Shown in pieces: positions 2,662-63,237 of a stretch of DNA of 64,000 bases. The notes below the pieces were generated by a model that was not told the origin of the DNA, made no database searches, and was given only the letters and a program-made list of their open reading frames with translations. How positions within the stretch are numbered: the stretch's first letter is position 1; every line of letters begins with the position of its first letter. Made by a program: the position numbers and the translations under genes. The stretch comes from Botryllus schlosseri. Taxonomy: Eukaryota. The stretch covers positions 17,176,001 through 17,240,000 of the forward strand of contig CM119371.1 of assembly GCA_051294905.1 (NCBI GenBank), read 5' to 3'.

Positions 2662-3076
2662 CAAGGGCAAGTTTTTGCAACTTTTGCAACTTTTTTTGCA
2701 GATTCCTAAGTACTCGTAAGATATGTAGAACGCTGTTTTAAGCTGTTTGAAGGAATCTTATAGTGCAACTTTTTGAAACTTTTGTTCATTTTATTTCATG
2801 CAACATTTTGCAAGTGATTCGACTTTTCATGAAAGTATTTTCGATTTTGGTGAAATAGATAGCTAAATTTCACTGAAACACTGTAAATCAGCACCGAAGT
2901 AACGCTTTAACGGGTCTTTCGGGAGCTGAGCCGGAGAATTGACCAATTTTTATGTCAATCTGATAAGTTGACCTTTTTTCTTCAGTCAACCGAGCAAAAT
3001 GTGGTCTTTAAGTGCAACTTTTGTCAAAAATAAATGCAATTTTCCACGGATTTTACTGCAACAAAAACTTGCCCCA
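2662..3076. mobile_element. MITE-like element with GCAAC subterminal repeats
   Basis: GGGCAAGTTTTT / AAAAACTTGCCC inverted ends and repeated GCAACTTTT motifs. TSD unclear. Confidence 0.5.
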
Positions 3077-17549: not shown

Positions 17550-18042
17550 GGTGTTTGACCATCAAACCAATCGATCATTTGATGCATACAACAGGTTTAT
17601 CAGCAAGTTTATTGATGAGTTCAACCGCCGCATTGACGGAATGAATGCTTTCTTGCCCATGATGAAAATGCTTTCAAATTCTATAGCATATAAGGTGGCC
17701 ATAGCCCCTAGTAATTTGAAACTTGAGTTGCTAGAAATGCAGTCAGATATCGAGCTCAAGCAATTAATAAAAGTGAATACTTAAATTGAATATTTGCGTC
17801 AAATTCCAGAGGCAAAGCATCCGAACTTAATAGCCAATGCCTTGATAAACGATTCTCTATCGTGATGGACTTATGTTTGCGAACCACTTTTTAGCAAAAT
17901 GGTCAGAATAAAAAATCTATATCGCAATCGATTGACCGATTAATACCACCTCAAGCAGCTACTGCGTACCGCATTCTTTGCAATTACGACTCGCTTTGAC
18001 ACACTTATTGAAGCTCGAAGCCAATGCCAAGTTGGATATTAA
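17550..18042 (+). pseudogene. hAT transposase C-terminal relic (GTF2IRD2/EPM2AIP1-like)
   Basis: One frame with stops: APSNLKLELLEMQSDIELK...HPNLIANAL...TYVCEPLFSKMVRIKNLYRNRLTD*YHLKQLLR, a hAT dimerisation domain pattern. Confidence 0.85.
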
Positions 18043-18475
18043 ATTGATTTTTTCTTGTTAGTGTTGCTATTCGTTGATACGCGCTTTTAAGCTTCATAAT
18101 TTCTGTTATGCCTAATGAGTGTTGCTGGTGCGACTCCAAACGTAAGTAGTAGTGTAGATCGCTCGTGACCTGCAATGGTGGCTTATGGGTGCGGTCGCAC
18201 ATCGTATGGAAAACTCGTGGTGGCACATCGTACTTTTTGACCCGCCCTCTCGGTTGCACATCGTAATGCATTCTTATGGGTGCGCTCGAACATCGTACTT
18301 TTAGGCATAGGCGCCGACTTACGAGGTTACGAGGTGGCGCAGCCACCTCGACACCATATTTACGAGGTGGCGGCCACCTCGTAAACGCCCGAGTTATTTA
18401 TGACCCGTAATTTGTAATCAGACGAATCGATGCGACCTCCTTAGAGACATCTTCGTTATTTATACGCGCGTGCAC

Positions 18476-19753
18476 CATGCGCGTAGCCAGGGGGTTCGAA
18501 TCCCCCTGTTTGAAACGCGAAACCCCGTCATTTTGAAATGACCATTTTAACTCCAATATTCAGTAATTCAGTAATTGTGTTATCATTGTTCCGTGCGGCC
18601 AATTTGCGGGAGGCAAGTTTCCAATCAGCGCGAAGAGTCTGTGATGATATCCCGTTGAGATGGTCGCGAAATTAGGCCAGTCATTGCCGTGTGCGTAGCA
18701 ATCGTCGCCAGCCTGATTTATCGCATCTCGAACAAGCCTGATTCCGCTGGTTTGAACAATCGCATCTGGAATAGGCCCAGTTCAAACTATATCATCGTTT
18801 GTTTGCGCAATCGCCTCTGCTTTGGCGGCTTCTGTCTGGTGTGCACGATATCATTGTGTTGATGACTATACGGCATACTCGTATGATAAGCTTGTCAACG
18901 AGTCCGGAAGTGCTGTTAATTAGCGACTCCCTGATCGGTCGTGAACAATTAAATACGCGCGCTTATCAATGAGTCCTACCTCTTATTTAGCGTTGGTGAC
19001 GATTTGCGCAAGTCAAAATGTACGAGTTTATTTGGAATATGCGCTACAATGACGCCGATTTCAGGTGGTTCAAACCTTTCCTCTTTTATAACTGAAGTCT
19101 TATCACAGCTTCTGATGGTTATGTTCAAGTATTAGCGGAAATCAATTACGGATGTACGCACGCGTCGCACATGTTTGCGGACATTCGATGTCATTCAGTT
19201 TCGCGAAGTCACTCTTTAACCACAATCGCTAATCCGCATACACTTAACTGCATTTTATCCAAGCTATCGCCATCGGGAAGTAGGAGCAAAAGCGTGGTAG
19301 GCCCGAGACGCGGTAGTTAGGCTAGCGATATCTTCCGTACTAGGTCTATTGCAGATGCGATTGTTTAGGCCAGCGATGATCTCGTGCGCACCGGGCCTAT
19401 TGCAGATGCGATTATTCAAGCCAGCGGAATTAGGCTTGTAGGTGACGCGATAAATCAGGCTACCAACAATTGCCGAGCGCGGGGCAATGAATGAACTAAT
19501 TTCGCAATTATCTGAGCGAGAAGCCGGGAGATCGTTTCGCGTTACATTGTGCAGTGCAATGCGTACTGACGAATCTCGCTTATTGCCTTTCGTTATTGGC
19601 CGTGCGTAACACTGATAATACGACTGAATTGCAACCGAGTATTACCGTCAGAGCGCTCATTTGAAAAGGGCGGGGTTTCGCCTTTAAGGAGGGGGTATCG
19701 CGCTTCCAAAGGATGGGCTTTCGACCCCCGAAACCCCCTGGCTTCGCGTCTGG
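18476..19753. mobile_element. Nested fold-back MITE-like element
   Basis: CATGCGCGTAGCCAGGGGG / CCCCCTGGCTTCGCGTCTG ends. Internal inverted homology between about 18665-18790 and 19390-19505. Confidence 0.6.
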
Positions 19754-20114
19754 ATGTACTCCAAAAATGCTTCGCGAAGGTAAATCGGGAAATGCACAAC
19801 TGCCGCCAAAATCCCTGTTTTAATCTGCAAACAATTGCCGCGATGCGAGCTTCTCAATGCGAAGCCAGAAACCGCACGAGACAATTGCTGATTAGCTGCG
19901 CGATTTCACGTTTGTAATCATCATTATTGTCGGTTTGAAACCTCATATTCGAGAGTTGTCGTGTGGTAGTTGCGAAGTTGCCATTCCAGTGCGTGGTGTA
20001 TTTCGTTACTCACACGGCGCGTTGATAACATTGATGCAACTTCAAATTCTTCATGACGTAAATTCTGATTTTTGTTCAATGCATTCCGCCTGATGGAATG
20101 CATCGTATACATCG

Positions 20115-20541
20115 CAGAGATGAGCGGATTTGAAATTTCTATGTCCTAATCCAATCCAAATCCGAACCTTCAAATCCAAATCCAAATCCTAATCCATAAC
20201 TTTTTCATATTCAAGTCCATGTCCAATCCTAATCCGATTCCAACTGGAAATTCAGAAAAAATACTAATTTATGCAATGGAGGGATTCGAAAATTTTCTTT
20301 CACAACCAACGATTCACTTGATTCAAGATAACTTAGTAACCATAAGTACATTAATAACTGATCTGAATAAAGTTTGTCGCCATTCGCCACACGACATTTC
20401 AATCTCCCAGAAAATAGTTCAATCCAATCCAAATCCTAATCCGTTCCGGAAAAAATGTCTAATCCAAATCCAATCCAAATCCGACAGAATTTCACAAATC
20501 CTGTTTTTTCAAAACCTAATCCTAATCCATGCTCATCTCTG
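20115..20541. mobile_element. hAT MITE with AATCC repeats
   Basis: TIRs CAGAGATGAGC / GCTCATCTCTG. Perfect TSD ATACATCG. Confidence 0.9.
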
Positions 20542-20944
20542 ATACATCGTCGGACGAATGATCGTACCGTTTTAAGATTCCACTTAGTAACTTGACTGCA
20601 TGGTTTGATAATAATGAGTGCAGAGTCGATATTAAAACGTAACGTAAAACGCAAATGGTTAACGCTGATCAATCAATCAATCAGTGATTGGCATGTAGGA
20701 AAGTGCGTTTTAGTGTGACGATGACGTCATCGACACGGAACAATTATGACGTCACAAGACTTCGCCACCTCGTAAAAAAATAAAAGTCGGCGCCTATGCT
20801 TTCAGGTATAGGCATCTCTCGCATATCGTATTGAAAACTCGTGTTGGCACATCGTACTTTTAGGTATAGGCATCTCTCGCACGTCGTACTTTCGCAAGTC
20901 ATACTTTTGTGTATAGACTGCGTCGGCATGTCGTACTTTCAGCA

Positions 20945-39866: not shown

Positions 39867-41260
39867 CAGGGGCGGGCAACTTCTCCAGTCGGCGGGCCGG
39901 ATACAGGCAAATTAAGTACTTGGCGGGCCGGATTGCTGAATCGACACATTATTCGCCCATTTATCCAAATACACAAGGAATAAATCGTATTTAATGAATG
40001 GATTTTAACGACAGTAGTGTCACTTCAAAGCCATTTCTCGCCGATAATGACGAGGATATAATGTGGATTTGAGAACAGCATTGTCATACAGGCGCCGCCA
40101 TGTCTGCTTCTCTCTGATCATAGTGTCCTATATGGTGTTGACACAAGCAAATATCACAGCTCAGTGAAATTGGTCTTCGTCACACTTTCCATTTGGTCTA
40201 CGTCACACTTTCCATTTGGTCAAAGGCAATTAGACGGTAGTTTTTGACCGACTTGCCGAGCATTGAATTTGATAAAACGGGGATCAATCGAAAGCTACCG
40301 CGGTGCTGGTTGCGAAAATGTAAATTCTATTCTGCTCGAGGTTCTGGAACCCCCAAAATCAGCCTTGAATGTTGCATTGTAACGGAGTTTTGTATTGTGA
40401 CACAGCCATGCGGTTTACTCTGCTCCTCACCTAATCCCAGACGGCATCGTTGCGCCACAATACCAAACTCCGTTACAATGCAACATTCGAAGCTGATTTT
40501 GGGGGGTCCCAGGACCACGAACCGAATAGAATTTATATTTTCGCAATTATTACCGCGGGAAAGTGAAAGGAAAGTGTGACGTAGACCTATTTCACTGAGC
40601 CGTGAGATTTTCTTGTGTACACACCTTATAGGACACTATGCTGTGCTCAATTAACTCACGGTGCAATCCCGAATTAATATTTCAAGGTGTTCGATAAGCC
40701 CAGTACCCCGAATTTACCAATATATCAATTCATTAGGGCTGAGTAGGTGATGAGATAGCGTCGTTGTCCATCTGTGTGGCCTATTTTATCTCGATATTAA
40801 ATTCATGCGGACCGCGGCATCTATATACGAAATTTGAAGTTGCCCGCGACCCGTTTAGAGTTGGCGTCCCCTGGCATAAGCGGTGTCTTACAAGAGCCAA
40901 CAAGTGTGCCGTGCTACAAGTCGGCGGTTACGGAATAAAAAAATAGAAATATCGGTCTGGTGTAAATGATCCTACTAACACCATGATTACCACAAACGAT
41001 ATTAGGGTTGAGTACATCGTAAATGCCGATAATGCAAACCTTCTCGCTTCGACGAACTTACGTGCAAGCTCCACTCTCACGCTGCGCATACAAATAACAT
41101 TCAGTCACTAAAATTTGACGTAGTAAGCAAGTAGCGGGGTATTTCGGCAGACTGTATCCGCGGGCCACATTATCATATAAGACGGAAAAATGTCCACGGG
41201 CCGGACAAAATCCCTTCGCGGGCCGGATCCGGCCCGCGGGACGTATGTTGCCCACCCCTG
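39867..41260. mobile_element. hAT MITE
   Basis: TIRs CAGGGGCGGGCAAC / GTTGCCCACCCCTG. Perfect TSD TCATAGAA. Same family as 47417-62331. Confidence 0.9.
40119..40640. mobile_element. Palindromic (fold-back) MITE with CATAG termini
   Basis: CATAGTGTCCTATA...TATAGGACACTATG with inverted homology extending to the centre. Approximate 7-bp TSD CTCTGAT/CTGTGCT. The empty site is seen at about 48730-48750 on the minus strand. Confidence 0.8.
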
Positions 41261-46322: not shown

Positions 46323-49300
46323 CCCTAGCAAACGGTGCTTTAAAAGTAGAAACACCATGGGAATCACTGACTCTAGTTCATTGGAGCTGATCTCGCTGTA
46401 GTGACAGTGTCACGCTGCAAAAAGTCGGCACCCGAGACCCGAAGTGGAATGAATGGCGGACTGAAATAAAGAGTGAAGTGAATGTGAACTACTGCGAAGC
46501 GCTTGAAGAAAGATGCATATGTCAACGATACTGATAAGATACAAAAAAGACAATGATACTGAATTGTACAATATCCATGTCGTGATGCACTAAGCCTAAA
46601 AAAGGCTATAAGCTCAACTGAAATGACTTCATTTTATTTTAATAATAACTTGAGCAATAATGAGGAGCATATGAAATCATGGCTGATGAAAAGAATAACG
46701 GTTAAATGTATAGTAAACCAACAATGGTGACCACAACATAAAAATATGTTGGGGCTCGCGAGTTATGCGTTTTGCGTTGGGACCGTTGAATCGCCAATTG
46801 CAATTTCAACTTCAAGCTGAAACTTGAGGTATTTAGGTGGTACTGTAGTTCACAGAAGAAAAATGCTGATCCACTGCAACATGGTGGACAGAAATAATAC
46901 AAAACGATCTGGAATCGCTTAAAACACCGTTGTATTCTGTTTCAGCAACTGGGGGCGGCCGAGGATGAAACTGCAAGCCACGAAACCGAGTCTTCAAATT
47001 CTTCCCAGTCAGGTAGAGTGATAAACACACCCGCAATTTATCTTTCCATGAGATCCGCGAAATTTTGTTTAAACGAACACGCAGAAGTGATCAACGTATA
47101 GGCATGTCTGATGCTCGAGTTCAGGTAGAAGTAATTCCGTAGTGCATGAGTTTTCAAACTAGGAGACGTGACCCCGTCTGTTTTAAATGTAACCCTACAC
47201 AGGAAACATGCCTACGCCGCGGTCGAATAAGTTATAGATCAGGGGTGGCAAATAGTCCCATGAAATCGAAACTACAGGTAAATGTTTATATGCCACGTTG
47301 TAACCATCCGACAGCGGTATGATGATTTCACTCTAGTCCAGAGGTTACCAACCTTTTTTGGCCGTGGCTCAATTACAGGTTTTAAAATGTTCTGTGGCCC
47401 ATCTCTTAGCCTAGAGCAAGAACGGGCAACATACGGCCCGCGACGGGATTTCGTCCGGCCCGCGGACAGTTTCCCGTTTTCTGTCGAGATTACCCATTAC
47501 TCGGTCAGACGTCAAATTTTAGTGACTGTATGTTATTATATACGCGTGAGCTGTGCATAGCGTGTAAGAGTGGAACTCACGCGTAAGTTCGTCGAAGCGA
47601 AATCATGGTATGCATATCCTCAGTTTGTGTGCATATATATCTTGAGTCGGGGTATTTGCCATAAAAATATCAAGGACAAAAATAAACTACATCGTTTCCT
47701 TTCTTGTATCGTATTCATATTATCATTATGATCATTTGCAATGAGGGTCGCTGAGACATTTTCAACTCTAATTCTATCATCAGACCTTCATTTTTCCTTT
47801 ATCCATATGAATTGAATTCGAGGTACCTGGTCACTTTTCACTTACACAATGATGGCAGCACCACTCACCCACCGTAAAAGTTATTATGTACTCAGGATGC
47901 TGTGTATATTGGTTTGAGTGCGCAACATTTGCTCCTATGTACAATAGGTGCCTTCAAAAACGATATATTTTCTCAAATCGTACTGGCTACTTCTTAAAAC
48001 AGCTAAATAGTATTTACAGTAGGCATCACTATAATAAATAATTGAAGAATTAGTCACCGTAAATACTATTTCATTCATAATCCAAATTTTTCGAAGGCAG
48101 CAACTCGGCCTTCGCTGGATGGAATTGAACCAAATTTGGGGAACATCGCTTCTATGGACAACCTAACACTTTCATGGGGTGAACATAAGATTTTAAATTT
48201 TTTTGTTATTCATTTTTATTCATTTGGTGTGTAGGCTTAAATTGGGTAACCTAACAATTTTATCAAGTAACCAGTACGATTAGGGAAAAAAGTCATTTTT
48301 GAATACCCCTAATGTACAATGATAAAGTTATGCGTGGTGATTATCTAACAAATGCGTTAGCAAATGTCTACGAAGAATTCTCGGTATGTAATCTAAGACT
48401 TAGATGATCGCCACCACTGCACAGCTACATGGGTCGTATTCTTATCCACCGCACCAGCTTAGTTGGATACCCACGTTGGACCCGACATAATCCAACAGAC
48501 ATAGCCTGTAAGTCTATATTAATTCTCCTTGGTACCAAGTTGGCTTACCTGATGGGTACTAACTTTAACTCCATGTGGGTCCCGTGTGGTAGGCCTACCC
48601 AAGTAGTCGTAAGACTTGCATTATCGGCATTTTACTATGTACTCAATCCTAATGAATTGAAATCTTGGTAAATTTGGAGTACCGGGCTTATCGAACGCCT
48701 TGAAATCTTTATTAGTGATTGCACCGTGTGTTAATTGATCAGAGAGAAGCAGAAATGGCGGCGCCTGTATGATGATGCTGTTCTCAAATCCACATTTCAC
48801 TCATCATTATCGGCTTGATCTGGCTTTCAAGTGACATTGATGTCGTTAAAATACATTCATTAAATACGATTTATTCCTTGTATATGTCAATACCTGGGCG
48901 AATAATGTATCGATTCAGCAATCCGGCCGTCATGTTCCTAATTTTCCTACATCCGGCCCGCCGACTGGAGAAGTTGCCAGTAGTTATATAGATGGCTCGT
49001 GATGTGGCAGGGGTTCTTATGGCGGGGTGGCGATTCGCCTGGAAACCCGGGGTGGCGATTCGCCTCTTATCTCTTATGGCGGGGCCGCGATTCGCCATGT
49101 GTTCTTATGGATGCGGTCGTGATTCGCCTTTTCGGATATAGGCTGCGGCGGTGAATCGTATTGAAATACTCGTGGTCGTGACTCGCCTTTTTTGCTATAG
49201 GCTGCGGCGGTGATGCGCCATGTATTCTTACGGGATCTGTGGTGATTCGCCATGTGTTCTTATGGGTGCGGTCGTGAATCGTACTTTTAGGTATAGACAT

Positions 49301-51917
49301 CTCTCGCATATCATACTTTCGGGTATAGACATCACTAAACAGGAAATTCACTAATCCGCAGTGCATTGCGCGATTTTGAAAACCAGATGTTGGCGGTTTT
49401 GTGTGACCCACTAAATACGTCCGTTTTGGAAATTCGGAGCGCGCACTATCGTATCGATTATTCCGCTAATCCGGTAAGTACTATTACATACAGGAGTATT
49501 CAGTATTCAGCAACGACACGAAAAGCGACCAACAAATAACCGCACTCGTAAATTAACACCTAAAAAAGTGTAAAATAGATTGCAAATCCCGCGATCGCTA
49601 ACAAGATAATGTCTCGGGTATAACCATTTAGTGACTTGGTGTTAAAGACATACCGATCGCTCACAAGGTAATATTTCGGTAATTAGTTTGTCACAGAGCC
49701 GTCGCAGACGGTGATTCGAAAACCAGCAATTTGACACTTTCTGGTGGTCGCTATATGTTTTGACACTTCGAACAGTGGCTGACTTTAGTTGCACGCTAAG
49801 AATTATGAGAATATTCAATCAATGTGTCAATTTGTCAACTTGAAATGAAACTTACTACACAACTCAAGTTGATTCGTATCTGAATGTGTTAATTCGGTAC
49901 AATTCTAATTAATTTGAGAAATCTTTTGATTCGACCGTAACCCGAATATTACTGACGCCGACTTTCAGCCGCATCGAATTATTCACACATTCCGCGCCGC
50001 TGTTTTCGCACTTATAGAATCAATACCAACTATAACTCTACAAGAATCAAGAATCACAAGTATGTGCATTATACAGTTATTGTCTTTATCAACACGAAAT
50101 CAAACTCTTAACAAAAACACACATCTTCATGAAAACCATCGAGTCCTTATCATCAAAAATGTTATAGTGCGGCGTCGGAATCCATTCGCGGAGTGTACTA
50201 AAGTTAAATCCAGATAATCCAAAATGAAATATTTGGACTTTGCCATAGTGTGAATTGAAATAGGATTGACAAACATGACTACCAACTTTGATCCAGTCAC
50301 ATTTCAAGATGATACTTTGAAACAAGTAATGTAACATTACAACTCTATTCACGATCCTGCTTTCCGTTTGTCAAAGAGATATTTTAACATCTTACCATAC
50401 TCAAAAGAATTATTCACAACATTAACAATTGTTAAAAATCTAGTTTCACTTACTTGATTATATCACTACAACTCACAAATTTACATTAATTCATCCTGGT
50501 TGGATTCGTATGCTCTATCTTTTTATTCAATTGTAAAGGTTGTTACTATTCTGAAGACAAAGTATTTACTAATCGGCGCATATACGATTTGACTTGGACA
50601 TATTATATTTTGAGTATACGAGATTTCAATGTCTGAACAATAACTGAGAATTAATTTATCTCAATTAAATCCGTATATTACAGCGTAAAAGATATTGGGG
50701 TGTCAGCAACTCTGTACGGTCGTAGTTACAACCACATTAACTAATCTACCCAGGCAACTCGTCATGATCATTCCTGAAATCAACACAAACACGACCACTG
50801 ACTTGAGTTAACCGCGAAACAGCATCAAGTTTTAAATCCGCTTGCAGCTGACGGATTATTCGAATGCATCGATGGAGAATATTATTGAACTCGTCGGTAT
50901 TGTTACTTCAACGAATTACACCGACTGCGAAAGTTAATATCGAATGGTAAGACTTGATCACATATTTGTTGATCACAGACATGACAAAAAAACATTACCG
51001 AGATTTTATAAACTAGTCATATTACTCTACACATCTATCAATATCAAAATGCGAGTCATCCAATTTTTCTACTAAAGTAACATTGCACTTTCGGATTCGA
51101 ATTCGGTATAGTCATACAAATTGTATTAAATCCAACATCAAAACAAAAGGAATTTTTTTAGTTTATTGAAATCAAATCATTCGTCTTCGACTTGTGCTTT
51201 TCTAGATTACCCGCGACAATTCGTTTCGAGTGAGTTGTAACCAAAGGCAAGATATCTTTGTGTCCACAGATATGGAAGATGAATATAGCTAACACAATCA
51301 CGAATCGACGTTTCAGAGTATTTCACGGGTGTAATAAACTTGTTAGTGTCACCTATCTAAAAGTACGCACGCGTTCGATTTCCATACCGACTGTTGCGAT
51401 GTTTAGGATTCACTTACAATAACCACGGGTGAGGATTTAACATCAATGTCGTTACTGTCGGAATTTGCGACAGAGAATTGAAACATATGCACTTTACAGA
51501 GTGTGAAAATATCACTTTGAGTATCGAGTACCGCTCGAAGCTAGCGATCAATTCTTAATCATTTCAGTAACTCCCCATTGTGCGTGCTAAATGCAAAATA
51601 TCGCGAGGTTATACACTCTAAGACTTTGATTATTGTAAAAGTAAATTGTGATATGTTTGTTAGATGCGTCCAATTCAACTAGAAGTGTCTAGTACCCAAC
51701 ACTCGTAATATCAAAAAAGTACTTGCTACACTGTTATTTGCTAAACGTGTTTTGCATTGTTGTTCATTTCTAGTATTGATTGAAGTTGTTTTTGAACCCT
51801 CAAATAATAATTCCCGACATGAAACTAAGCCGCCGAAAGTCGTTAACATCACAAAGAAACAGTTTGCACGATGTTTACTAAATGTGTCCTATAGTTAGGT
51901 GTACTGGAATTATTTGT

Positions 51918-51920
<3 letters not shown>

Positions 51921-51950
<30 letters not shown>
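51921..51950. repeat. (AC)15 microsatellite, mirrored as (GT)15 at 59345-59374
   Basis: Direct reading of the sequence. Confidence 0.95.
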
Positions 51951-51952
<2 letters not shown>

Positions 51953-53739
51953 TCAGAGAAATTGGAAATTTTTCCGTTGTCATTCGCTAAAGTAAATGTC
52001 ATCACAATACTCTGTCACTAAAAGACGTTACTTGGACGTGCTTGAATTCTAGACATAGTTCTGATTTACCCAACACAAGACCCATGGACAACCCTAGTTT
52101 CAACCGAACACAGATATCCAAAATATCACACACTTCGCTATTCCTAAAGCACAAACACACGATACAAAATAATACTTGTTGTGTTGTTGCGGCATCATCA
52201 CTCAACAATATCACCGTCAATACAAATGATGTTTATGTGTAACATGCTATTGATTTGAACCACACCCACCTGACAGAAGAGGATTTACTCAATCTTTACA
52301 AAATGGATATTGACCAACATCACACCACCGGATTGTATCTGTTTCGCTGGATACGAGTTATGTTAGTTTAACAGTAAACAAATTTCACCCTCTTGGATTA
52401 TGAACTCAATGCGTCAGCAGTCATTCAATATTTTGTTTGTGTCAACTAGTTACTTTGTATGTTACCCCACAACTCTTACAAAAGTACGAAGGATATTAAC
52501 ACAAAGTAATTAACTTTACTCGATATTCTCGCATTACGAAACTAAAGAATGGGTGGTTAGACTCTACAAACTGTTTCGATATCACAAGACCTTTATTGTC
52601 TGAATGGGTGTTCATGTGTCTTAAGAACCAAATAGTTCAACACAGCACTAGTACCAACAGAAACATCAGAGTTGGTCACACAAAAGTTTGTATGCGTGCA
52701 GTATGCGAATACCATGTGTAAGTCCAGCACAATTGTGGTATCCATCCGGTTTTAGTTAACACAATTTACGACACCGAGGTCACCTCATCTTTCGTAAGAC
52801 AACAAACCAACCAAGGTTTCAGGATATGTCCGTGTCATAGCAATAAATCAGCTACTCCAACAACAGAGTACATATGTTTTCTAGTTACGGTGCTTACATC
52901 TTACACACAAATCAATCTACTTTGCTAACAAAAAGTGCTGGGTCATCAAGTGATTACCCTAACAACAAAACAGCTAAACGTACTATCATACAAAATGGCC
53001 GTTATAGTCACCAACGGTACATGGTACAAGTAACAAGTCTCGAGAATCCAGTTATTGAAAAAACATGAAAGTGTTTCTCCTGCGCCAAGTCGTTATGTTG
53101 ACGAAAGCGTATATTGTAATATCATGATCGATTTGCATTCGTTGGTCGCAAAATGTCACTACTCTAAATAATTATTTTTCACTCAAACACAAACGCATAC
53201 TTGTCGCCAATCGTTTTTCATCAAGCACGAGTTCAAGAAACCTGCTACGACATGAATTCCGATTTAGTTTTACAAATATTTTATAATTGTTTTTAGTAAC
53301 ACTATATCAATGTCATCAAGTTGAGTGTTTACGATATTAGTGTGTAGGTGTGTGTGTCATACTTGGAGGATCCGTATTACAATTGACTCGAATTGACTAA
53401 ATGTAAGAAGGGTTGAAATGTTTCGAATCGATTCATAAGTGGTCTTCGTTGTGGTTTTCGTCGGGTCATACAGCACGAACTAACTGTAGACTCCTCTCTG
53501 TTGTACAGCTACTCGGTAATCGATATGCATTAACATGTAAACAACGATCTTGTTTCGTCACACCAAAAATATGTTCACTGTCGCGATACGCCGCACAAGA
53601 CGTGCATAGCCTTTTCACACTCGTAATAGTATACCAACGTCAAGCAATAACGTTTAACAAGACCAACGACACTGAACCCACGACGTTTACCTATGTAAAA
53701 TTACCACTTTCACTTGCCAGTCCATCGTTTACCTGACTA

Positions 53740-54425
53740 AACATATTATTTTCCTTTGGAGATCTGCCGTTTACCCAGAGTAAGAAACCATTTTCCCTCG
53801 TAAATATTTTTTTTCCTCGGCTAACAAACCTTTTTTCACTTGGAAATATATTTTTCTCTGGGTAAGAAACCATTTTCATTGGGAAATCTATTTTTTTTCC
53901 CTGGGTAACAAACCTTTTTTCACTTGGAAATATATTTTTTTCCCGGATAACAAACCTTTTTCACTTGGAAATATATTTTCCCCCGGATAACAAACCTTTT
54001 TCACTTGGAAATATATTTTTTCCCTGGGTAACAAACCTTTTTCACTTGGACATATATTTTTTCTCTGGGTAACAAACCTTTTTCACTTGGAAATATATTT
54101 TTTCTTTGAGCAACAAACCTTTTTCACTTGGAAATATATTTTTATCCTACAGCAACAAACCATTTTCACTTGGTAGTCCACCGTTTACCTGAGTAAAAAT
54201 ATCATTTTCCTTTGGAGATCTGGCGTTTACCCATGCTAACAAACCATTTTCACTTGGAAAAATACTTTTACCTAGAGTAACTAATCATTTTCTTTTGGAA
54301 ATATATTTTCTCCCAGGGTAACAAATCCTTTTCGCTTGGAAAACTGTCATTCACCTGAGTACCAATACCGTTTTCACTTGGAAATCTATCTTTTCGCTAG
54401 GTAATAATACCATTTTCGTTTTGAA
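53740..54425. repeat. Minisatellite with a unit of about 39 bp, mirrored at about 56870-57555
   Basis: Unit CTGGGTAACAAACCTTTTTCACTTGGAAATATATTTTTT, degenerate at the edges. Confidence 0.92.
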
Positions 54426-54569
54426 AACTGACACACACACCGGACAATTTGATATTTTTTGTATATTGTTACAACAAACGGTGACAAAATATACACCAGC
54501 AACGACTCCATACATTTGTGTAATCAAATATTCAGTTGCTCTGATGCATCCATCAAAATAATTGGTTAC

Positions 54570-55680
54570 TCACATACAATAACAATGTGCTGTTGTACAT
54601 CGACATGTATGTTTTCGGAATTGGTGAATAAAGGGGTTTCCGATATGTCCGTGATGTCCGGGTTCGTGCTTTAGATTTTCCAGAGTCAAAATGTCTGAAT
54701 AAAACACCTCCTCGACTTTGGTAGCTGGTTGATACACGGATAATGGTGTTCGGAAAACGGATGAATTTATGTTCCCCATCGCGCCGACAACTCCGGGTTA
54801 CTTGTGAGTTTCCTCAGGTCTGTTTACTATATTGTGTCTTTACTGATCAATACATGTCGCTCCAGTCAGCTGAAACCGGATCACTAATACGAGAAAGTGT
54901 GTGGGGGCCTGATCCGGATATTCACTCATGAACCAACGACCAATATTCAAGTAAACATGTTACAGACCGTGTTTTGTCTCCATGAAAAATACCAATGCAT
55001 ACACCATCACATCAAGTACGTCACGATTGTTCACAAGTATTCACGTAGACGAGGTGTACATACAATTTGTCGGTGTACAAACATCATGGAAAACAAATTC
55101 ATGTTCTCAAGTCTCATCATGCGACGACTCTGTACATTCAATGTGGGCATAGATGACACACGGCATGATACAATTGACAGCGCATTATGCATGTTGATAT
55201 ATTCTCAGTCAAATATGCGAACCATACACAATCATATACCCTGATTTTCGCTGAATATCCACAACACCAACAAATCTGTACATTTCTTTTCCCTCAACCT
55301 TGACGATAGAGTTGTCATCCCAATGTACCAGTCGAGTGTATGGTTCATCTGGTGTAAAATCCAAATCAAATGTCACCAAGGTATCGTTTTTCATTTTTAA
55401 TATTTCCACTGCCGCATCTTGTCTGTGTCGTAAAACCACGGCGTGGGGCCAGAGGAATCTATGGCCAGTTACGCGTAGTCCCATATTTACTCGTGGATAT
55501 GGTTAGGTTACGACAACGTTTTCTCAATGGTCTGTGTGGGTGCACCGTTTCAATACGTAGCTGGATCAACTAGACCAAAAGTCTCCAACCGCGTTTTATA
55601 ACGACCTGTAGAATTACGAGATAGCACCCTCTTGCGGTGTGATTAACACGAAATAAGCCTTCAACTCGCAGAGACACACC
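54570..55680 (-). pseudogene. Possible decayed ORF of unknown product crossing the spacer/arm boundary of palindrome 2
   Basis: ORFs 55209-55484 and 54570-54779 are in the same minus frame (starts 705 bp apart). The intervening and upstream translation looks protein-like with scattered stops. Confidence 0.3.
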
Positions 55681-58600
55681 TTGGATTACATTATCTAATC
55701 GTAATCGAACTCGAGATTCGCACACACACAGAGTCCCTGTTTACGATTTCAATCCGGAGTCACTGCTCACGATGTTTATCTGTAGTCGTTATGTGGGAGT
55801 AGCGACATCTCACATATTCATCGCGTGAAAGATTGATAACGATGGTGATCGCCAAATACATTACACCAGGTGAAACACTGCGGTCTCAGCAAAAAAAAAA
55901 ATTCGCAGGTTAGGACGAACAATACGCGGAGGGATTGAGCGAGTTACGCAACCCGATTGTGTCGAAGTCTGGATCACGATACAAGTCTACCTGAGAATCC
56001 GAACAATCTTGCAAAATCAAGGTGTGAATCCGTGAAAGGGCTGTACTCGGGTGAGATTGATTTTTCACAAGTTGGGTGGAGGTCGGTTCAAACTAAGACC
56101 ATGTTACGTCCAAATATGGCTGCTTGTCTCTCTCAAAGTCATCTATGCCCACATTGAATGTACAGAGTCGTCGCATGATGAGACTTGAGAACATGAATTT
56201 GTTTTCCATGATGTTGGTACACCGACAAATTGTATGTACACCTCGTCTACGTGAATACTTGTGAACAATCGTGACGTACTTGATGTGATGGTGTATGCAT
56301 TGGTATTTTTCATGGAGACAAAACACGGTCTGTAACATGTTTACTTGAATATTGGTCGTTGGTTCATGAGTGAATATCCGGATCAGGCCCCCACACACTT
56401 TCTCGTATTAGTGATCCGGTTTCAGCTGACTGGAGCGACATGTATTGATCAGTAAAGACACAATATAGTAAACAGACCTGAGGAAACTCACAAGTAACCC
56501 GGAGTTGTCGGCGCGATGGGGAACATAAATTCATCCGTTTTCCGAACACCATTATCCGTGTATCAACCAGCTACCAAAGTCGAGGAGGTGTTTTATTCAG
56601 ACATTTTGACTCTGGAAAATCTAAAGCACGAACCCGGACATCACGGACATATCGGAAACCCCTTTATTCACCAATTCCGAAAACATACATGTCGATGTAC
56701 AACAGCACATTGTTATTGTATGTGAGTAACCAATTATTTTGATGGATGCATCAGAGCAACTGAATATTTGATTACACAAATGTATGGAGTCGTTGCTGGT
56801 GTATATTTTGTCACCGTTTGTTGTAACAATATACAAAAAATATCAAATTGTCCGGTGTGTGTGTCAGTTTTCAAAACGAAAATGGTATTATTACCTAGCG
56901 AAAAGATAGATTTCCAAGTGAAAACGGTATTGGTACTCAGGTGAATGACAGTTTTCCAAGCGAAAAGGATTTGTTACCCAGGGAGAAAATATATTTCCAA
57001 AAGAAAATGATTAGTTACTCTAGGTAAAAGTATTTTTCCAAGTGAAAATGGTTTGTTAGCATGGGTAAACGCCAGATCTCCAAAGGAAAATGATATTTTT
57101 ACTCAGGTAAACGGTGGACTACCAAGTGAAAATGGTTTGTTGCTGTAGGATAAAAATATATTTCCAAGTGAAAAAGGTTTGTTGCTCAAAGAAAAAATAT
57201 ATTTCCAAGTGAAAAAGGTTTGTTACCCAGAGAAAAAATATATGTCCAAGTGAAAAAGGTTTGTTACCCAGGGAAAAAATATATTTCCAAGTGAAAAAGG
57301 TTTGTTATCCGGGGAAAAATATATTTCCAAGTGAAAAAGGTTTGTTATCCGGGAAAAAAATATATTTCCAAGTGAAAAAAGGTTTGTTACCCAGGGAAAA
57401 AAAATAGATTTCCCAATGAAAATGGTTTCTTACCCAGAGAAAAATATATTTCCAAGTGAAAAAAGGTTTGTTAGCCGAGGAAAAAAAATATTTACGAGGG
57501 AAAATGGTTTCTTACTCTGGGTAAACGGCAGATCTCCAAAGGAAAATAATATGTTTAGTCAGGTAAACGATGGACTGGCAAGTGAAAGTGGTAATTTTAC
57601 ATAGGTAAACGTCGTGGGTTCAGTGTCGTTGGTCTTGTTAAACGTTATTGCTTGACGTTGGTATACTATTACGAGTGTGAAAAGGCTATGCACGTCTTGT
57701 GCGGCGTATCGCGACAGTGAACATATTTTTGGTGTGACGAAACAAGATCGTTGTTTACATGTTAATGCATATCGATTACCGAGTAGCTGTACAACAGAGA
57801 GGAGTCTACAGTTAGTTCGTGCTGTATGACCCGACGAAAACCACAACGAAGACCACTTATGAATCGATTCGAAACATTTCAACCCTTCTTACATTTAGTC
57901 AATTCGAGTCAATTGTAATACGGATCCTCCAAGTATGACACACACACCTACACACTAATATCGTAAACACTCAACTTGATGACATTGATATAGTGTTACT
58001 AAAAACAATTATAAAATATTTGTAAAACTAAATCGGAATTCATGTCGTAGCAGGTTTCTTGAACTCGTGCTTGATGAAAAACGATTGGCGACAAGTATGC
58101 GTTTGTGTTTGAGTGAAAAATAATTATTTAGAGTAGTGACATTTTGCGACCAACGAATGCAAATCGATCATGATATTACAATATACGCTTTCGTCAACAT
58201 AACGACTTGGCGCAGGAGAAACACTTTCATGTTTTTTCAATAACTGGATTCTCGAGACTTGTTACTTGTACCATGTACCGTTGGTGACTATAACGGCCAT
58301 TTTGTATGATAGTACGTTTAGCTGTTTTGTTGTTAGGGTAATCACTTGATGACCCAGCACTTTTTGTTAGCAAAGTAGATTGATTTGTGTGTAAGATGTA
58401 AGCACCGTAACTAGAAAACATATGTACTCTGTTGTTGGAGTAGCTGATTTATTGCTATGACACGGACATATCCTGAAACCTTGGTTGGTTTGTTGTCTTA
58501 CGAAAGATGAGGTGACCTCGGTGTCGTAAATTGTGTTAACTAAAACCGGATGGATACCACAATTGTGCTGGACTTACACATGGTATTCGCATACTGCACG

Positions 58601-59342
58601 CATACAAACTTTTGTGTAACCAACTCTGATGTTTCTGTTGGTACTAGTGCTGTGTTGAACTATTTGGTTCTTAAGACACATGAACACCCATTCAGACAAT
58701 AAAGGTCTTGTGATATCGAAACAGTTTGTAGAGTCTAACCACCCATTCTTTAGTTTCGTAATGCGAGAATATCGAGTAAAGGTAATTACTTTGTGTTAAT
58801 ATCCTTCGTACTTTTGTAAGAGTTGTGGGGTAACATACAAAGTAACTAGTTGACACAAACAAAATATTGAATGACTGCTGACGCATTGAGTTCATAATCC
58901 AAGAGGGTGAAATTTGTTTACTGTTAAACTAACATAACTCGTATCCAGCGAAACAGATACAATCCGGTGGTGTGATGTTGGTCAATATCCATTTTGTAAA
59001 GATTGAGTAAATCCTCTTCTGTCAGGTGGGTGTGGTTCAAATCAATAGCATGTTACACATAAACATCATTTGTATTGACGGTGATATTGTTGAGTGATGA
59101 TGCCGCAACAACACAACAAGTATTATTTTGTATCGTGTGTTTGTGCTTTAGGAATAGCGAAGTGTGTGATATTTTGGATATCTGTGTTCGGTTGAAACTA
59201 GGGTTGTCCATGGGTCTTGTGTTGGGTAAATCAGAACTATGTCTAGAATTCAAGCACGTCCAAGTAACGTCTTTTAGTGACAGAGTATTGTGATGACATT
59301 TACTTTAGCGAATGACAACGGAAAAATTTCCAATTTCTCTGA

Positions 59343-59377
<35 letters not shown>

Positions 59378-62300
59378 ACAAATAATTCCAGTACACCTAA
59401 CTATAGGACACATTTAGTAAACATCGTGCAAACTGTTTCTTTGTGATGTTAACGACTTTCGGCGGCTTAGTTTCATGTCGGGAATTATTATTTGAGGGTT
59501 CAAAAACAACTTCAATCAATACTAGAAATGAACAACAATGCAAAACACGTTTAGCAAATAACAGTGTAGCAAGTACTTTTTTGATATTACGAGTGTTGGG
59601 TACTAGACACTTCTAGTTGAATTGGACGCATCTAACAAACATATCACAATTTACTTTTACAATAATCAAAGTCTTAGAGTGTATAACCTCGCGATATTTT
59701 GCATTTAGCACGCACAATGGGGAGTTACTGAAATGATTAAGAATTGATCGCTAGCTTCGAGCGGTACTCGATACTCAAAGTGATATTTTCACACTCTGTA
59801 AAGTGCATATGTTTCAATTCTCTGTCGCAAATTCCGACAGTAACGACATTGATGTTAAATCCTCACCCGTGGTTATTGTAAGTGAATCCTAAACATCGCA
59901 ACAGTCGGTATGGAAATCGAACGCGTGCGTACTTTTAGATAGGTGACACTAACAAGTTTATTACACCCGTGAAATACTCTGAAACGTCGATTCGTGATTG
60001 TGTTAGCTATATTCATCTTCCATATCTGTGGACACAAAGATATCTTTGCCTTTGCCTACAACTCACTCGAAACGAATTGTCGCGGGTAATCTAGAAAAGC
60101 ACAAGTCGAAGACGAATGATTTGATTTCAATAAACTAAAAAAATTCCTTTTGTTTTGATGTTGGATTTAATACAATTTGTATGACTATACCGAATTCGAA
60201 TCCGAAAGTGCAATGTTACTTTAGTAGAAAAATTGGATGACTCGCATTTTGATATTGATAGATGTGTAGAGTAATATGACTAGTTTATAAAATCTCGGTA
60301 ATGTTTTTTTGTCATGTCTGTGATCAACAAATATGTGATCAAGTCTTACCATTCGATATTAACTTTCGCAGTCGGTGTAATTCGTTGAAGTAACAATACC
60401 GACGAGTTCAATAATATTCTCCATCGATGCATTCGAATAATCCGTCAGCTGCAAGCGGATTTAAAACTTGATGCTGTTTCGCGGTTAACTCAAGTCAGTG
60501 GTCGTGTTTGTGTTGATTTCAGGAATGATCATGACGAGTTGCCTGGGTAGATTAGTTAATGTGGTTGTAACTACGACCGTACAGAGTTGCTGACACCCCA
60601 ATATCTTTTACGCTGTAATATACGGATTTAATTGAGATAAATTAATTCTCAGTTATTGTTCAGACATTGAAATCTCGTATACTCAAAATATAATATGTCC
60701 AAGTCAAATCGTATATGCGCCGATTAGTAAATACTTTGTCTTCAGAATAGTAACAACCTTTACAATTGAATAAAAAGATAGAGCATACGAATACAACCAG
60801 GATGAATTAATGTAAATTTGTGAGTTGTAGTGATATAATCAAGTAAGTGAAACTAGATTTTTAACAATTGTTAATGTTGTGAATAATTCTTTTGAGTATG
60901 GTAAGATGTTAAAATATCTCTTTGACAAACGGAAAGCAGGATCGTGAATAGAGTTGTAATGTTACATTACTTGTTTCAAAGTATCATCTTGAAATGTGAC
61001 TGGATCAAAGTTGGTAGTCATGTTTGTCAATCCTATTTCAATTCACACTATGGCAAAGTCCAAATATTTCATTTTGGATTATCTGGATTTAACTTTAGTA
61101 CACTCCGCGAATGGATTCCGACGCCGCACTATAACATTTTTGATGATAAGGACTCGATGGTTTTCATGAAGATGTGTGTTTTTGTTAAGAGTTTGATTTC
61201 GTGTTGATAAAGACAATAACTGTATAATGCACATACTTGTGATTCTTGATTCTTGTAGAGTTATAGTTGGTATTGATTCTATAAGTGCGAAAACAGCGGC
61301 GCGGAATGTGTGAATAATTCGATGCGGCTGAAAGTCGGCGTCAGTAATATTCGGGTTACGGTCGAATCAAAAGATTTCTCAAATTAATTAGAATTGTACC
61401 GAATTAACACATTCAGATACGAATCAACTTGAGTTGTGTAGTAAGTTTCATTTCAAGTTGACAAATTGACACATTGATTGAATATTCTCATAATTCTTAG
61501 CGTGCAACTAAAGTCAGCCACTGTTCGAAGTGTCAAAACATATAGCGACCACCAGAAAGTGTCAAATTGCTGGTTTTCGAATCACCGTCTGCGACGGCTC
61601 TGTGACAAACTAATTACCGAAATATTACCTTGTGAGCGATCGGTATGTCTTTAACACCAAGTCACTAAATGGTTATACCCGAGACATTATCTTGTTAGCG
61701 ATCGCGGGATTTGCAATCTATTTTACACTTTTTTAGGTGTTAATTTACGAGTGCGGTTATTTGTTGGTCGCTTTTCGTGTCGTTGCTGAATACTGAATAC
61801 TCCTGTATGTAATAGTACTTACCGGATTAGCGGAATAATCGATACGATAGTGCGCGCTCCGAATTTCCAAACTGGACGTATTTAGTGGGTCACACAAAAC
61901 CGCCAACATCTGGTTTTCAAAATCGCACAATGCACTGCGGATTAGTGAATTTCCTGTTTAGTGATGTCTATACCCGAAAGTATGATATGCGAGAGATGTC
62001 TATACCTAAAAGTACGATTCACGACCGCACCCATAAGAACACATGGCGAATCACCACAGATCCCGTAAGAATACATGGCGCATCACCGCCGCAGCCTATA
62101 GCAAAAAAGGCGAGTCACGACCACGAGTATTTCAATACGATTCACCGCCGCAGCCTATATCCGAAAAGGCGAATCACGACCGCATCCATAAGAACACATG
62201 GCGAATCGCGGCCCCGCCATAAGAGATAAGAGGCGAATCGCCACCCCGGGTTTCCAGGCGAATCGCCACCCCGCCATAAGAACCCCTGCCACATCACGAG

Positions 62301-63237
62301 CGATCTATATAACTACTGTTGCCCGCCCCTGGCCTAGAGTCATAGTTTTACTTACTGTGTGGTAATCGCCGGCGCCAGTATGCCGATTTCTTTAAAATAT
62401 GCCCGTTATTTACTACCATTCATAACGACATGAAATTTCGTGAAGAAAATTTTCCCATTCCTTAAATCTTTCCCGGGAGCGACGAACGAAATACTTAATA
62501 GCTCTCTGTTCGCAGAGCGGCAGTGACGGATCCGGTTAGCCCGTATAGCTCTTGTGTATATTATTCCTGCCCGCGGTTCCAGGAACTTCGTGAAACACAA
62601 TGATCGAATTCGTGCATCCACGAACGAAGTTTGCGTTATTAGTATTTTTCCTCCACTATATGATTAAATAAATATTATACTGTGATAACGAAACGATTTT
62701 AAGCCCGCTTGAAACAATTCTTAACGTGATTTCGGTGAATGAAATACTACATAGTTGTGGAGAGAAAAATGGTTATTATATGCACATGCACACTGAAATC
62801 GCGATGTCAGAATATTAAATCCAATGGCGCCATCAATTTATGCCACACTTACATTATGTCCAACGATTTCACGGCTAGACATTTCAGATCGACTATACTA
62901 AGGTTAATGAGCTGCGCTGATTCCCTAATCTTTTATGATTCATTGCTGTGGTACCGTATACTTCCACGGGGATTGGATAATTAATTGCGAATATGGCTAT
63001 TTTATTGTTATTACAATACGACCTCACTAAGTACCGTGAATATACATCAAATATGATTCAGTCTGAGTTTAATACACTTTCTGTTGAGGGCATTACCAGA
63101 TATGACCTTGCTGGCTACTCAGCATTACCTTCAAGTTATTAAATACTCAAAATTATTTTGTTGCGATAAGCTGTACGTTGTCATCGTAAGCATAGCCGGG
63201 GAACACAAGACACTGTGGCTATTTGATGGTGTGAACC

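Follow-up and report, generated by a model that had tools for sequence, protein, structure and literature searches.

The stretch of Botryllus schlosseri DNA analysed here (the window, 64,000 nucleotides) contains at positions 48979-62317 an insertion of 13,339 bp, which consists of two inverted arms and a loop and is very probably a non-autonomous hairpin element derived from Polintons/Mavericks of the same genome. The assignment is based on ends shared with a co-resident Polinton, a collinear subterminal array, a 6-bp target-site duplication, up to 1 kb of common subterminal DNA (86-89% identity) and elements with integrase genes between ends of the same family type. Since the palindrome has Polinton ends but none of the Polinton genes, the family probably spreads by borrowing Polinton enzymes. 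Its shape is inherited within a family that numbers hundreds of members. The first-pass annotation had read the element as non-autonomous and possibly a snap-back defective genome or satellite mobilised by a helper Polinton; the non-autonomous Polinton origin is supported, but the window copy itself is not a snap-back event. A full-text literature search found no paper describing palindromic non-autonomous Polintons. New here are a conserved open reading frame (ORF) in the loop, the other fold-back point of a second palindrome, and a typical length of about 0.75 of that of the putative helper Polinton.

The features of the window copy are listed in Table 1. Its inverted repeats (6.18 kb each) make up 93% of the element and, with 12 mismatches and one 1-nt indel between them, are 99.79% identical, so that the near-identical arms of about 6.18 kb and the 980-bp spacer of the first-pass annotation are borne out by measurement. 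Copies of the 10-mer GCGATTCGCC (at most 1 mismatch) lie 52, 77, 109, 141 and 264 nt from the element end and form a candidate protein-binding array. Between subfamilies, the subterminal short repeats switch in concert. In the left arm and loop (48979-56137), Tandem Repeats Finder detects only the arrays at 49089-49281 (32-bp period) and 53780-54417 and one short dinucleotide run. No ORF that overlaps the element exceeds 115 amino acids, and of 27 stop-to-stop arm ORFs of at least 60 amino acids none stays open and alike in diverged copies. Searches of the arms by tblastn with the Polinton's ORFs revealed no Polinton protein remnants, and no genes for protein-primed polymerase B (pPolB), rve integrase, ATPase, protease or capsid were detected in them, in agreement with the earlier claim that Polinton genes are missing. 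An Rfam search gave 0 matches at E <= 0.1.

Table 1. Features of the palindrome and its insertion site, in window positions.
Feature	Position	Strand	Remarks
Interrupted host repeat (MITE-like)	48736..48978	.	interrupted at 8 nt from the end of the 26-nt string with its match at 39867
Left target-site duplication copy	48973..48978	.	6 bp, GTTGCC
Left arm	48979..55157	+	6,179 nt; starts with the (AGT)2 end motif AGTAGT
Subterminal short-repeat array	49030..49281	+	10-mer GCGATTCGCC, at most 1 mismatch; mirrored in right arm
41-bp tandem array	53780..54417	+	15.4 copies, within left arm; mirror image 56878-57515
Loop (spacer)	55158..56137	.	unique, 980 bp
Loop ORF	55209..55484	-	91 codons + stop (MGLRV...GSHI); start, stop and length conserved
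Right arm	56138..62317	-	6,180 nt; reverse complement of left arm; ends ACTACT
Right target-site duplication copy	62318..62323	.	6 bp, GTTGCC

The termini are of the 5'-AG...CT-3' type and show a short reiteration, (AGT)2//(ACT)2 in this element, and the flanks read GTTGCC-AGTAGT...ACTACT-GTTGCC, exactly the termini and duplication first proposed. In this copy the inverted repeat extends one base further out (C...G), and taken alone it could also be read with a 4-bp duplication. The 6-bp reading stands because the extra base is non-complementary in the other copies, all of which have a 6-bp duplication. Joining the flanks and removing one copy of the duplication gives a 26-nt string whose reverse complement occurs exactly at window position 39867, at the end of an uninterrupted paralogue of the host repeat (39875-40120); the left flank matches 40120-39875 at 87%. 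The insertion was thus precise and the palindrome inserted as a unit, in line with the first-pass annotation, in which removing the element restores the host MITE end.

The same architecture is found across the 495-Mb genome. The end sequence AGTAGTNNNNTAGATCGNTCG has 515 forward and 513 reverse exact matches (control 0/0), and more than 500 end pairs are spread over all large contigs. All nine full-length copies that were read are palindromes. Perfect 6-bp duplications accompany AGTAGT...ACTACT ends in 13 of 13 end pairs, the outcome predicted for a check suggested in the first-pass annotation; with the sequenced Polinton and a second palindrome in the window the count becomes 15 of 15 elements. 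The distance between paired ends is 12.9-14.6 kb in 24 of 36 pairs, and the median of 13.7 kb corresponds to 0.75 of the 18.3-kb Polinton. By a rough estimate, the family makes up about 1% of the genome (about 515 pairs of about 13.7 kb, with the Polintons themselves counted in). Within 3 mismatches, the 60-nt end of the window copy is matched by only 4 elements. One 24.3-kb copy has long ORFs (755 and 450 amino acids, no Pfam match), but these lie within a 9.9-kb nested insertion and therefore do not represent an autonomous form of the palindrome family.

The second family palindrome in the window is shorter and has a different turn-around point. One arm is about 66 nt longer than the other, arm identity is 97.3%, and the element carries a perfect 6-bp duplication. 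The 10-mer GCACATCGTA, which is that of the sequenced Polinton, occurs in it 7 times at matching positions.

This Polinton (contig 1, C1:5923771-5942033) has 18,263 bp, inverted ends of 442 bp that are 99.5% alike, and the duplication GCCGAG. It encodes pPolB (ORF of at least 1,118 amino acids, PF03175, E 4e-8), an rve+chromo integrase and an A32-like ATPase, and is thus autonomous, with ends of this type, as the first-pass annotation had suggested looking for. Its ends are AGTAGTGTAGTAGATCGCTCGTG, those of the palindromes AGTAGTTATATAGATCGCTCGTG; 19 of the first 23 nt are common to both and the subterminal repeat arrays are collinear. Further inside, the Polinton segment 16770-17814 recurs in the arms of two palindromes with 88.8% identity, and the segments 628-1116 and 3971-4144 recur in a third with 86%. 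At six further places, located by coordinates, an integrase gene that is intact or nearly so is enclosed by family-type ends; one of these elements, C5:885676-904217, combines the exact 21-nt end of the window family with integrase and pPolB genes. Potential helpers are plentiful: protein searches of the genome gave 41 matches to pPolB, of which 36 are free of stops, and 113 to integrase, of which most are; a genome search with Pfam PF03175 returned 0 matches, a false negative in view of these 41.

Several observations count against derivation from a Polinton. Beyond the first 23 nt the window copy resembles the sequenced Polinton weakly (69% over about 200 bp), and its 10-mer is GCGATTCGCC where the Polinton has GCACATCGTA. 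The first 60 nt of the C5 element differ from those of the window copy by more than 3 mismatches, and about 4.5 kb of each arm could be traced to no source. Three of the four pPolB genes on contig 1 lack a nearby end that matches the degenerate pattern, so many Polintons in this genome have other ends.

The loop is conserved over its full length, at 92-97%, at no fewer than 39 other places in the genome among the matches listed. It carries a conserved 91-codon ORF, so the window element is not quite gene-less. This ORF is under moderate purifying selection, and TATAAAA stands about 110 nt upstream of it, at 55593-55599; the small protein that it encodes has been kept by selection. Over the Walker-B half of the Polinton ATPase the protein is 27% identical (pairwise E 2e-5; tblastn E 0.007), but an origin as ATPase fragment was rejected, as Pfam yields nothing and both structure models are all-beta. 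The Pfam search gave no domain, with TriTu at E 0.13. Confidence in the AlphaFold models is low, with pLDDT values of 58.7 and 62.0. A Foldseek comparison with PDB and BFVD gave 0 matches at E <= 0.001, the best being small heat-shock-protein-like beta sandwiches at E >= 0.009, and the ESM Atlas gave no usable match. A profile search against 1.8 billion representatives returned only one family member and one WD40 repeat protein, the latter taken to be a repeat artefact. Six raw RNA reads were found, each lying only partly on the stretch.

In the favoured explanation, the palindromes keep at both ends what Polintons require in cis, with all Polinton genes lost. One such part would be the (AGT)2 terminal reiteration, of the kind used by protein-primed polymerases for jumping-back initiation; the other would be the subterminal array of about 5-8 short repeats, probably bound by integrase, terminal protein or a packaging protein. 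An integrase supplied by a co-resident Polinton would insert the palindrome and generate the 6-bp duplication, and the terminal protein and polymerase of this helper probably copy it as linear DNA. We infer mobilisation by the helper from the ends and duplications, and replication and packaging would likewise be its work. The palindrome most likely arose as a copy-back (strand-switch) product of one element end and is now inherited. As expected of a copy-back product, it duplicates one genome end in inverted orientation on either side of a turn-around point, and the different turn-around point and arms unequal by about 66 nt of the second palindrome also favour such an origin. A displaced single strand could fold into a 6-kb stem with a 1-kb loop and so maintain the similarity of the arms, for which gene conversion at the chromosomal site could equally account.

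A more far-reaching reading is possible, though rather unlikely: the palindromes would be heritable satellites of an endogenous virus, that is, snap-back, defective-interfering-like Polinton genomes that are replicated by the terminal protein and polymerase of the helper and integrated by its integrase, fit its capsid because they have about three quarters of its genome length, and by now outnumber it several-fold. A hairpin with a 6-kb stem would re-homogenise the arms in each round of replication, the concerted switch of the 10-mer between subfamilies would reflect helper specificity, and the 91-amino-acid protein would be a factor of their own.

The main alternative accepts mobilisation by Polintons but has the host maintain the palindrome, by intrachromosomal gene conversion between the close inverted arms after insertion. 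Gene conversion keeps the large palindromes of sex chromosomes and the inverted repeats of plastids alike. The arms of the window copy differ by 0.2%, as against about 3% to its nearest relatives (loop at most 97% alike, best arm segment 97.1%, among the matches listed); in 8 other palindromic copies the arms are 96.7-100% identical, while copies differ from one another by 8-30%. A single master copy would not produce this pattern without conversion, and ordinary conversion can explain the arm identity of the 8 copies with no need for a hairpin intermediate. On that view the divergence between arms would understate the age of the copies, whereas the perfect duplications in 15 of 15 elements argue for young insertions. 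Moreover, one copy at 96.7% and the short palindrome at 97.3% indicate that arms can drift, and a second turn-around point arises more easily by a hairpin or copy-back event. On balance we lean slightly away from host conversion.

It is improbable that the main effect of the palindromes is to be a source of hairpin RNA. Silencing by hairpin RNA has a precedent in Mu killer, and read-through transcription of near-perfect 6-kb inverted arms could yield long double-stranded RNA, and from it small RNAs against Polintons with shared subterminal sequence, of which some family members contain 0.2-1 kb. This shared sequence is non-coding end DNA, short in the window copy, and such a role explains neither the copy number nor the conserved ORF.

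A foldback cut-and-paste transposon of another superfamily (FB/MuDR-like, P/Galileo-like or hAT-like), with Polinton-like ends by chance, is very improbable. Foldback-type superfamilies make duplications of 7-9 bp, and the FB/MuDR type combines a duplication of about 9 bp with arms that are largely tandem repeats. The window element has neither. As described for Drosophila FB, Galileo and sea-urchin TU, such elements share with the palindrome long inverted arms with internal tandem arrays, a small central region and, for FB or Galileo, almost no coding capacity. The palindrome differs in its mostly unique arm sequence and its Polinton-type end motif and duplication length (6 bp in 15 of 15); the ends, the collinear array and as much as 1 kb of subterminal sequence that the family shares with the sequenced Polinton, and the integrase genes inside family-type ends, speak against chance.

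That one arm is a false fold-back of the other in the assembly is not credible: although none of the public reads and contigs aligned (the contigs being pieces of 66-351 nt) spans both arm-loop junctions, every other full-length copy that was read has this architecture with such ends and duplications, end pairs occur on all large contigs, each copy has its own sequence, flanks and perfect duplication, the window arms differ at 12 positions, and other copies have nested insertions confined to one arm.

Among known systems, autonomous Polintons are alike in their (AGT)2//(ACT)2 ends, 6-bp duplication, terminal inverted repeats and, for the co-resident one, collinear array, but carry the pPolB, integrase, ATPase, protease and capsid genes, all five of which the palindrome lacks. 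The inverted repeats are 6.18 kb in the palindrome and 442 bp in the contig 1 Polinton, and the palindromes number hundreds of copies. In the sections on termini of Barreat and Katzourakis (2021, PMC8097293), (AGT)2//(ACT)2 ends with 6-bp duplications are the commonest end type reported for vertebrate Mavericks, the inverted repeats of which measure 46-1,447 bp (mean 402 bp), and a jumping-back role of the terminal repeats is described. A preprint on Lepidoptera (10.1101/2025.02.07.637071) reports, in its part on element ends, autonomous Polintons with inverted ends of about 2 kb that contain hexon and adenain genes; Polinton ends can thus reach kilobases, but those of the palindrome are 6 kb long, non-coding and nearly the whole element.

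Helper-dependent adenovirus is similar as a protein-primed, linear, helper-dependent replicon, and the median palindrome length of 0.75 of the Polinton invites comparison, packaging of the palindrome being presumptive. Natural defective adenovirus genomes have long inverted repeats. As far as described in PMC4189039, helper-dependent genomes shorter than about 75% of the wild type undergo rearrangement, and a 15-kb vector was packaged as direct or inverted dimers. These are laboratory vectors in virions, neither integrated nor inherited, and their dimers join at a junction, without the unique, gene-bearing 1-kb loop of the palindrome. Snap-back or copy-back defective viral genomes, as outlined in PMC13506859, share the reverse-complement duplication of one end over nearly the whole length and the loss of helper coding, but are mainly from RNA viruses and transient. 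The palindrome is DNA, integrated in the germ line, diversified into a family, and keeps an ORF.

For animal Polintons/Mavericks, protein-primed linear DNA replication and virion formation are still unsettled, as stated in the passages of PMC8097293 on this subject. A gene-poor hairpin family makes part of this question testable. Retention of only the Polinton ends points to (AGT)2 and the array of about 5-8 repeats as the sequences required in cis, the narrow length distribution near 0.75 of the helper hints at an adenovirus-like packaging limit, and arm homogeneity is a possible read-out for single-strand hairpin intermediates. Near-perfect palindromes of 13 kb are also likely sites of replication stalling and rearrangement. 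If the derivation from Polintons is true, the family would be an unusually clear example of an element that parasitises a virus-like transposon, and if the satellite reading is true as well, it would represent virophage-like three-level parasitism in an animal germ line.

The first-pass annotation had described the large palindrome of the window as two inverted arms of about 6.18 kb with few differences, enclosing a 980-bp spacer, and alignment of the two halves bears this out. A repeat finder run on the window returned two abutting inverted-repeat blocks, together spanning 48978-62318, and global alignment of 48979-55157 with the reverse complement of 56138-62317 showed that the arms of 6,179 and 6,180 nt are 99.79% identical (12 mismatches and one single-base indel). 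The spacer, or loop, measures 980 bp. The flanks read GTTGCC-AGTAGT...ACTACT-GTTGCC, as proposed earlier; a reading with a 4-bp duplication, in which the repeat is extendable by one complementary base, is excluded by other copies. In silico excision of the palindrome and one copy of the duplication yields a 26-nt string. Its exact reverse complement is found at one other place of the window, 39867, where a paralogous repeat that matches the left flank at 87% ends. Because the excision string recurs at this repeat end, the palindrome entered the host repeat as one unit, in agreement with the initial reading. No ORF longer than 115 aa overlaps the palindrome, and an Rfam search with it gave no match.

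The ends define a large family in the 495.5-Mb assembly (219 contigs, of which C1 carries the window). With the terminal 300 bp as query, inverted pairs 13-24 kb apart were found on many contigs. In the whole assembly the 21-nt end occurs, with at most three mismatches, 434 times in forward and 429 times in reverse orientation (control 5 and 3), and AGTAGTNNNNTAGATCGNTCG occurs exactly 515 and 513 times (control 0 and 0). Among the first 100 listed ends 36 pairs could be formed, of which 24 have lengths of 12.9-14.6 kb, with a median of 13.7 kb. Ten copies besides the window copy were fetched, and arms were compared in all longer ones except a 22.9-kb copy on C14. All six copies of 13-15 kb are palindromes in which each window segment matches both halves at mirror positions, as are three of the four longer copies, the fourth being the C14 copy; palindromes thus make up nine of nine arm-tested full-length copies of 13-24 kb, window copy included. 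The palindromic architecture is inherited within the family. Arms within one copy are 96.7-100% identical, as against 70-97% between copies, where similarity is mosaic and the nearest relative differs by segment. Perfect 6-bp duplications, the length first claimed for the window copy, flank 13 of 13 end pairs, and 15 of 15 if the second palindrome and the Polinton described below are added. AC is present at duplication positions 2-3 in nine of the 15 (e.g. TACGTC, CACGTC, AACGTG), which may indicate a weak target preference.

The surplus length of long copies consists of nested insertions. A 24.3-kb copy on C5 carries a 9.9-kb insert in one arm, and an 18.2-kb copy (C9:18233425-18251579) has an insert of about 2 kb inside the loop. 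The 9.9-kb insert, with ORFs of 755, 450 and 131 aa (fetched pieces L047 7153-8999 and L048 3-2267) that gave no Pfam match, is a mobile element without Pfam-recognised ORFs. The C9 copy is flanked by exon-like ORFs (L044 3-626, L045 9059-9577) matching 3-hydroxyacyl-CoA dehydrogenase and enoyl-CoA hydratase, and is probably located within an intron of a gene for fatty-acid oxidation. A 3.5-kb member (L043, C6:12114500-12117997) is not palindromic; its inverted ends are about 320 bp long and it has about 600 bp in common with the arms, in a single orientation only.

An autonomous element with the same kind of termini, as envisaged in the first-pass annotation, lies on the contig of the window, 11.2 Mb upstream (C1:5923771-5942033, referred to as the sequenced Polinton). 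It is 18,263 bp long and has inverted ends of 442 bp that are 99.5% alike, AGTAGT...ACTACT termini and the 6-bp duplication GCCGAG. Its genes stand in a row on a single strand: that of a pPolB polymerase (PF03175 E 4e-8), with an ORF no shorter than 1,118 aa and a small ORF upstream of it, and those of a chromodomain-bearing rve integrase and a P-loop ATPase of A32-like type. The palindrome had been said to lack Polinton genes, and the Polinton ORFs indeed found no match in its arms. About 4.5 kb of each arm is without recognisable origin, and none of the 27 arm ORFs tested is conserved across diverged copies.

The two kinds of element are tied by sequence. Their ends match at 19 of the first 23 positions, and the short-repeat arrays behind the ends are collinear in the sequenced Polinton and the window palindrome (see table). 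Repeats within one element have switched in concert (GCACATCGTA type versus GCGATTCGCC type), as expected for binding sites co-evolving with a protein, which makes the arrays candidate protein-binding sites. Beyond the first 23 nt the window copy resembles the sequenced Polinton weakly (69% over about 200 bp). Two palindromes have in their arms, at 88.8%, the right subterminal kilobase of this Polinton (16770-17814, beyond its own inverted repeat), and a third has left-end pieces 628-1116 and 3971-4144 at 86%. With at most three mismatches, the 60-nt end of the window copy occurs in four elements only, and the C5 Polinton listed in the table is not among them.

At six further places, known by coordinates only, family-type ends enclose an integrase gene that is intact or nearly so. 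In a protein search of the genome, pPolB was matched at 41 places in addition to that of the query itself, with 92-95% identity, and 36 of the 41 are without stops; integrase gave 113 matches, the majority without stops. The main integrase group is at 92-100% identity, and two further groups of intact ORFs, at about 66% (384 aa) and about 54% (about 339 aa), probably belong to other Polinton or integrase-bearing lineages. A PF03175 family search of the genome returned zero matches though at least 41 pPolB genes are present, this route being insensitive to Polinton polymerases. On contig 1, no end of the form searched for lies near three of the four pPolB genes, and therefore many Polintons here have other ends. 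Judged from these gene sequences, potential helper Polintons are plentiful in the genome.

Positions of features in the palindromes and the sequenced Polinton, and of the elements (from end to end) with integrase genes inside family-type ends
Feature	Location	Position	Strand	Remark
91-codon loop ORF	window	55209-55484 including stop	-	start, stop and length conserved
GCACATCGTA (at most 1 mismatch)	sequenced Polinton	62, 88, 121, 153, 185, 211, 243, 322 nt from end		
GCGATTCGCC	window palindrome	52, 77, 109, 141, 264 nt from end		
Left arm	second palindrome	1-168 plus 2655-6056 (element coordinates)		
Right arm	second palindrome	9631-9465 plus 9479-6123 (element coordinates)		
Integrase	C1	38196562-38211497		by coordinates
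Integrase	C1	34868426-34884932		by coordinates
Integrase and pPolB (C5 Polinton)	C5	885676-904217		18.5 kb; exact 21-nt end of window family; by coordinates
Integrase	C15	~6997506-7011833		by coordinates
Integrase	C8	22158842-22177984		by coordinates
Integrase	C4	12062538-12077395		by coordinates

The end search also matched window positions 18145 and 27775, the limits of a second palindrome, 9,631 bp long, which has (AGT)3 at its ends and is flanked by the duplication AACGTA. Its arms of about 3.55 kb are 97.3% alike, apart from 2,486 bp inserted into the left one alone (window 18313-20798, local G+C about 47%), and the 10-mers of its subterminal array are those of the sequenced Polinton. The arms correspond to the outer half of each arm of the large palindrome, with the turn-around about 3 kb earlier; the loop, without the ORF-bearing segment, is 66 nt, the extra length of one arm. 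Mirror-symmetric loss around the axis is hard to obtain by random deletion in duplex DNA and natural for a new copy-back event or hairpin-tip processing, and this symmetry is the main reason why we favour a hairpin intermediate.

The loop of 980 bp recurs at full length and 92-97% identity in at least 39 other places among the genome matches listed. More diverged copies have an alternative loop type with only two patches in common with the window loop, the larger of which is a 91-codon ORF, preceded by TATAAAA about 110 nt upstream. The window and nine other copies agree in its start, stop and length; an internal stop is present in a single copy, and in one more the available sequence ends within the ORF. 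At nucleotide level the two loop types are 70-73% identical, and the ORF frame shows pN/pS of 0.46-0.53 without stops (Fisher p 2e-4 to 1e-3; dN/dS about 0.3 after Jukes-Cantor correction), the other five frames having 2-10 stops. Differences fall 28:14:33 on the codon positions, and constraint is therefore moderate. Public data hold five further relatives of the protein (P0001-P0005; 90-93 aa, 63-95% identity). We consider it likely that the ORF is a real protein-coding gene. The contigs of these relatives, 671-1,075 nt, are about as long as the loop, as expected if short-read assemblies break at inverted arms. Searches for the function of the protein in Pfam, with a profile against 1.8 billion representatives, in the ESM Atlas and by fold gave nothing reliable, and two models are all-beta with low confidence (pLDDT 58.7 and 62.0). 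The protein is weakly similar to the ATPase of the Polinton in the Walker-B half of the latter; given the Pfam result and the all-beta models, the reading as an ATPase fragment was rejected, and the similarity is probably due to chance.

As judged from its ends, duplications and partners, the window palindrome belongs to the Polinton/Maverick elements as a non-autonomous derivative, although it has none of the gene content by which autonomous members are recognised. It is similar in look to foldback transposons, but the duplication length of that group differs from the 6 bp of the window family. In vertebrate Mavericks, according to passages of PMC8097293, the commonest end motif is (AGT)2//(ACT)2, duplications are 6 bp and inverted ends measure 46-1,447 bp, so that the longest reach about 1.4 kb as compared to arms of 6.18 kb here. 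Excerpts of a preprint on butterflies (10.1101/2025.02.07.637071) report Polintons with gene-bearing inverted ends of about 2 kb. We found no account of a palindromic Polinton derivative with few genes in the full-text literature searched, including parts of PMC6431247 and PMC5499653, most subscription journals and Repbase reports being outside its scope.

The comparisons establish a family of hundreds of copies with precise 6-bp duplications, palindromes that lack Polinton genes, Polinton-type ends common to gene-bearing Polintons, arms that evolve together and a conserved loop ORF. In the mechanism we propose, a Polinton integrase would insert the palindrome, and the terminal protein and polymerase of a helper would start at the (AGT)n reiteration, for which passages of PMC8097293 describe a role in jumping-back initiation in vertebrate Mavericks, and replicate it in the form of linear DNA. 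A polymerase that changed to the complementary strand while copying one end would have given rise to the architecture. The displaced strand would fold into a 6-kb stem, in which arm mismatches could be corrected. Equally well, the arms, inverted and close to each other, may be kept alike by gene conversion once the palindrome is integrated, in keeping with the window copy, whose nearest relatives differ by about 3% and whose arms differ by 0.2%; against this stand the 15 duplications, none of them imperfect, and two elements whose arms are about 97% alike.

The length distribution of the palindromes is narrow and lies near 0.75 of the helper's length. This recalls adenovirus, for which parts of PMC4189039 report that helper-dependent genomes below about 75% of wild-type length rearrange and that vectors of 15 kb are encapsidated as dimers in direct or inverted orientation; by analogy, it may point to a packaging constraint on palindrome length. 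What the analysis adds for these elements is a sequence-level tie to a Polinton, integrase-bearing elements delimited by family-type ends, 10-mers that switch in concert, an ORF in the loop, another turn-around point and the length ratio to the helper.
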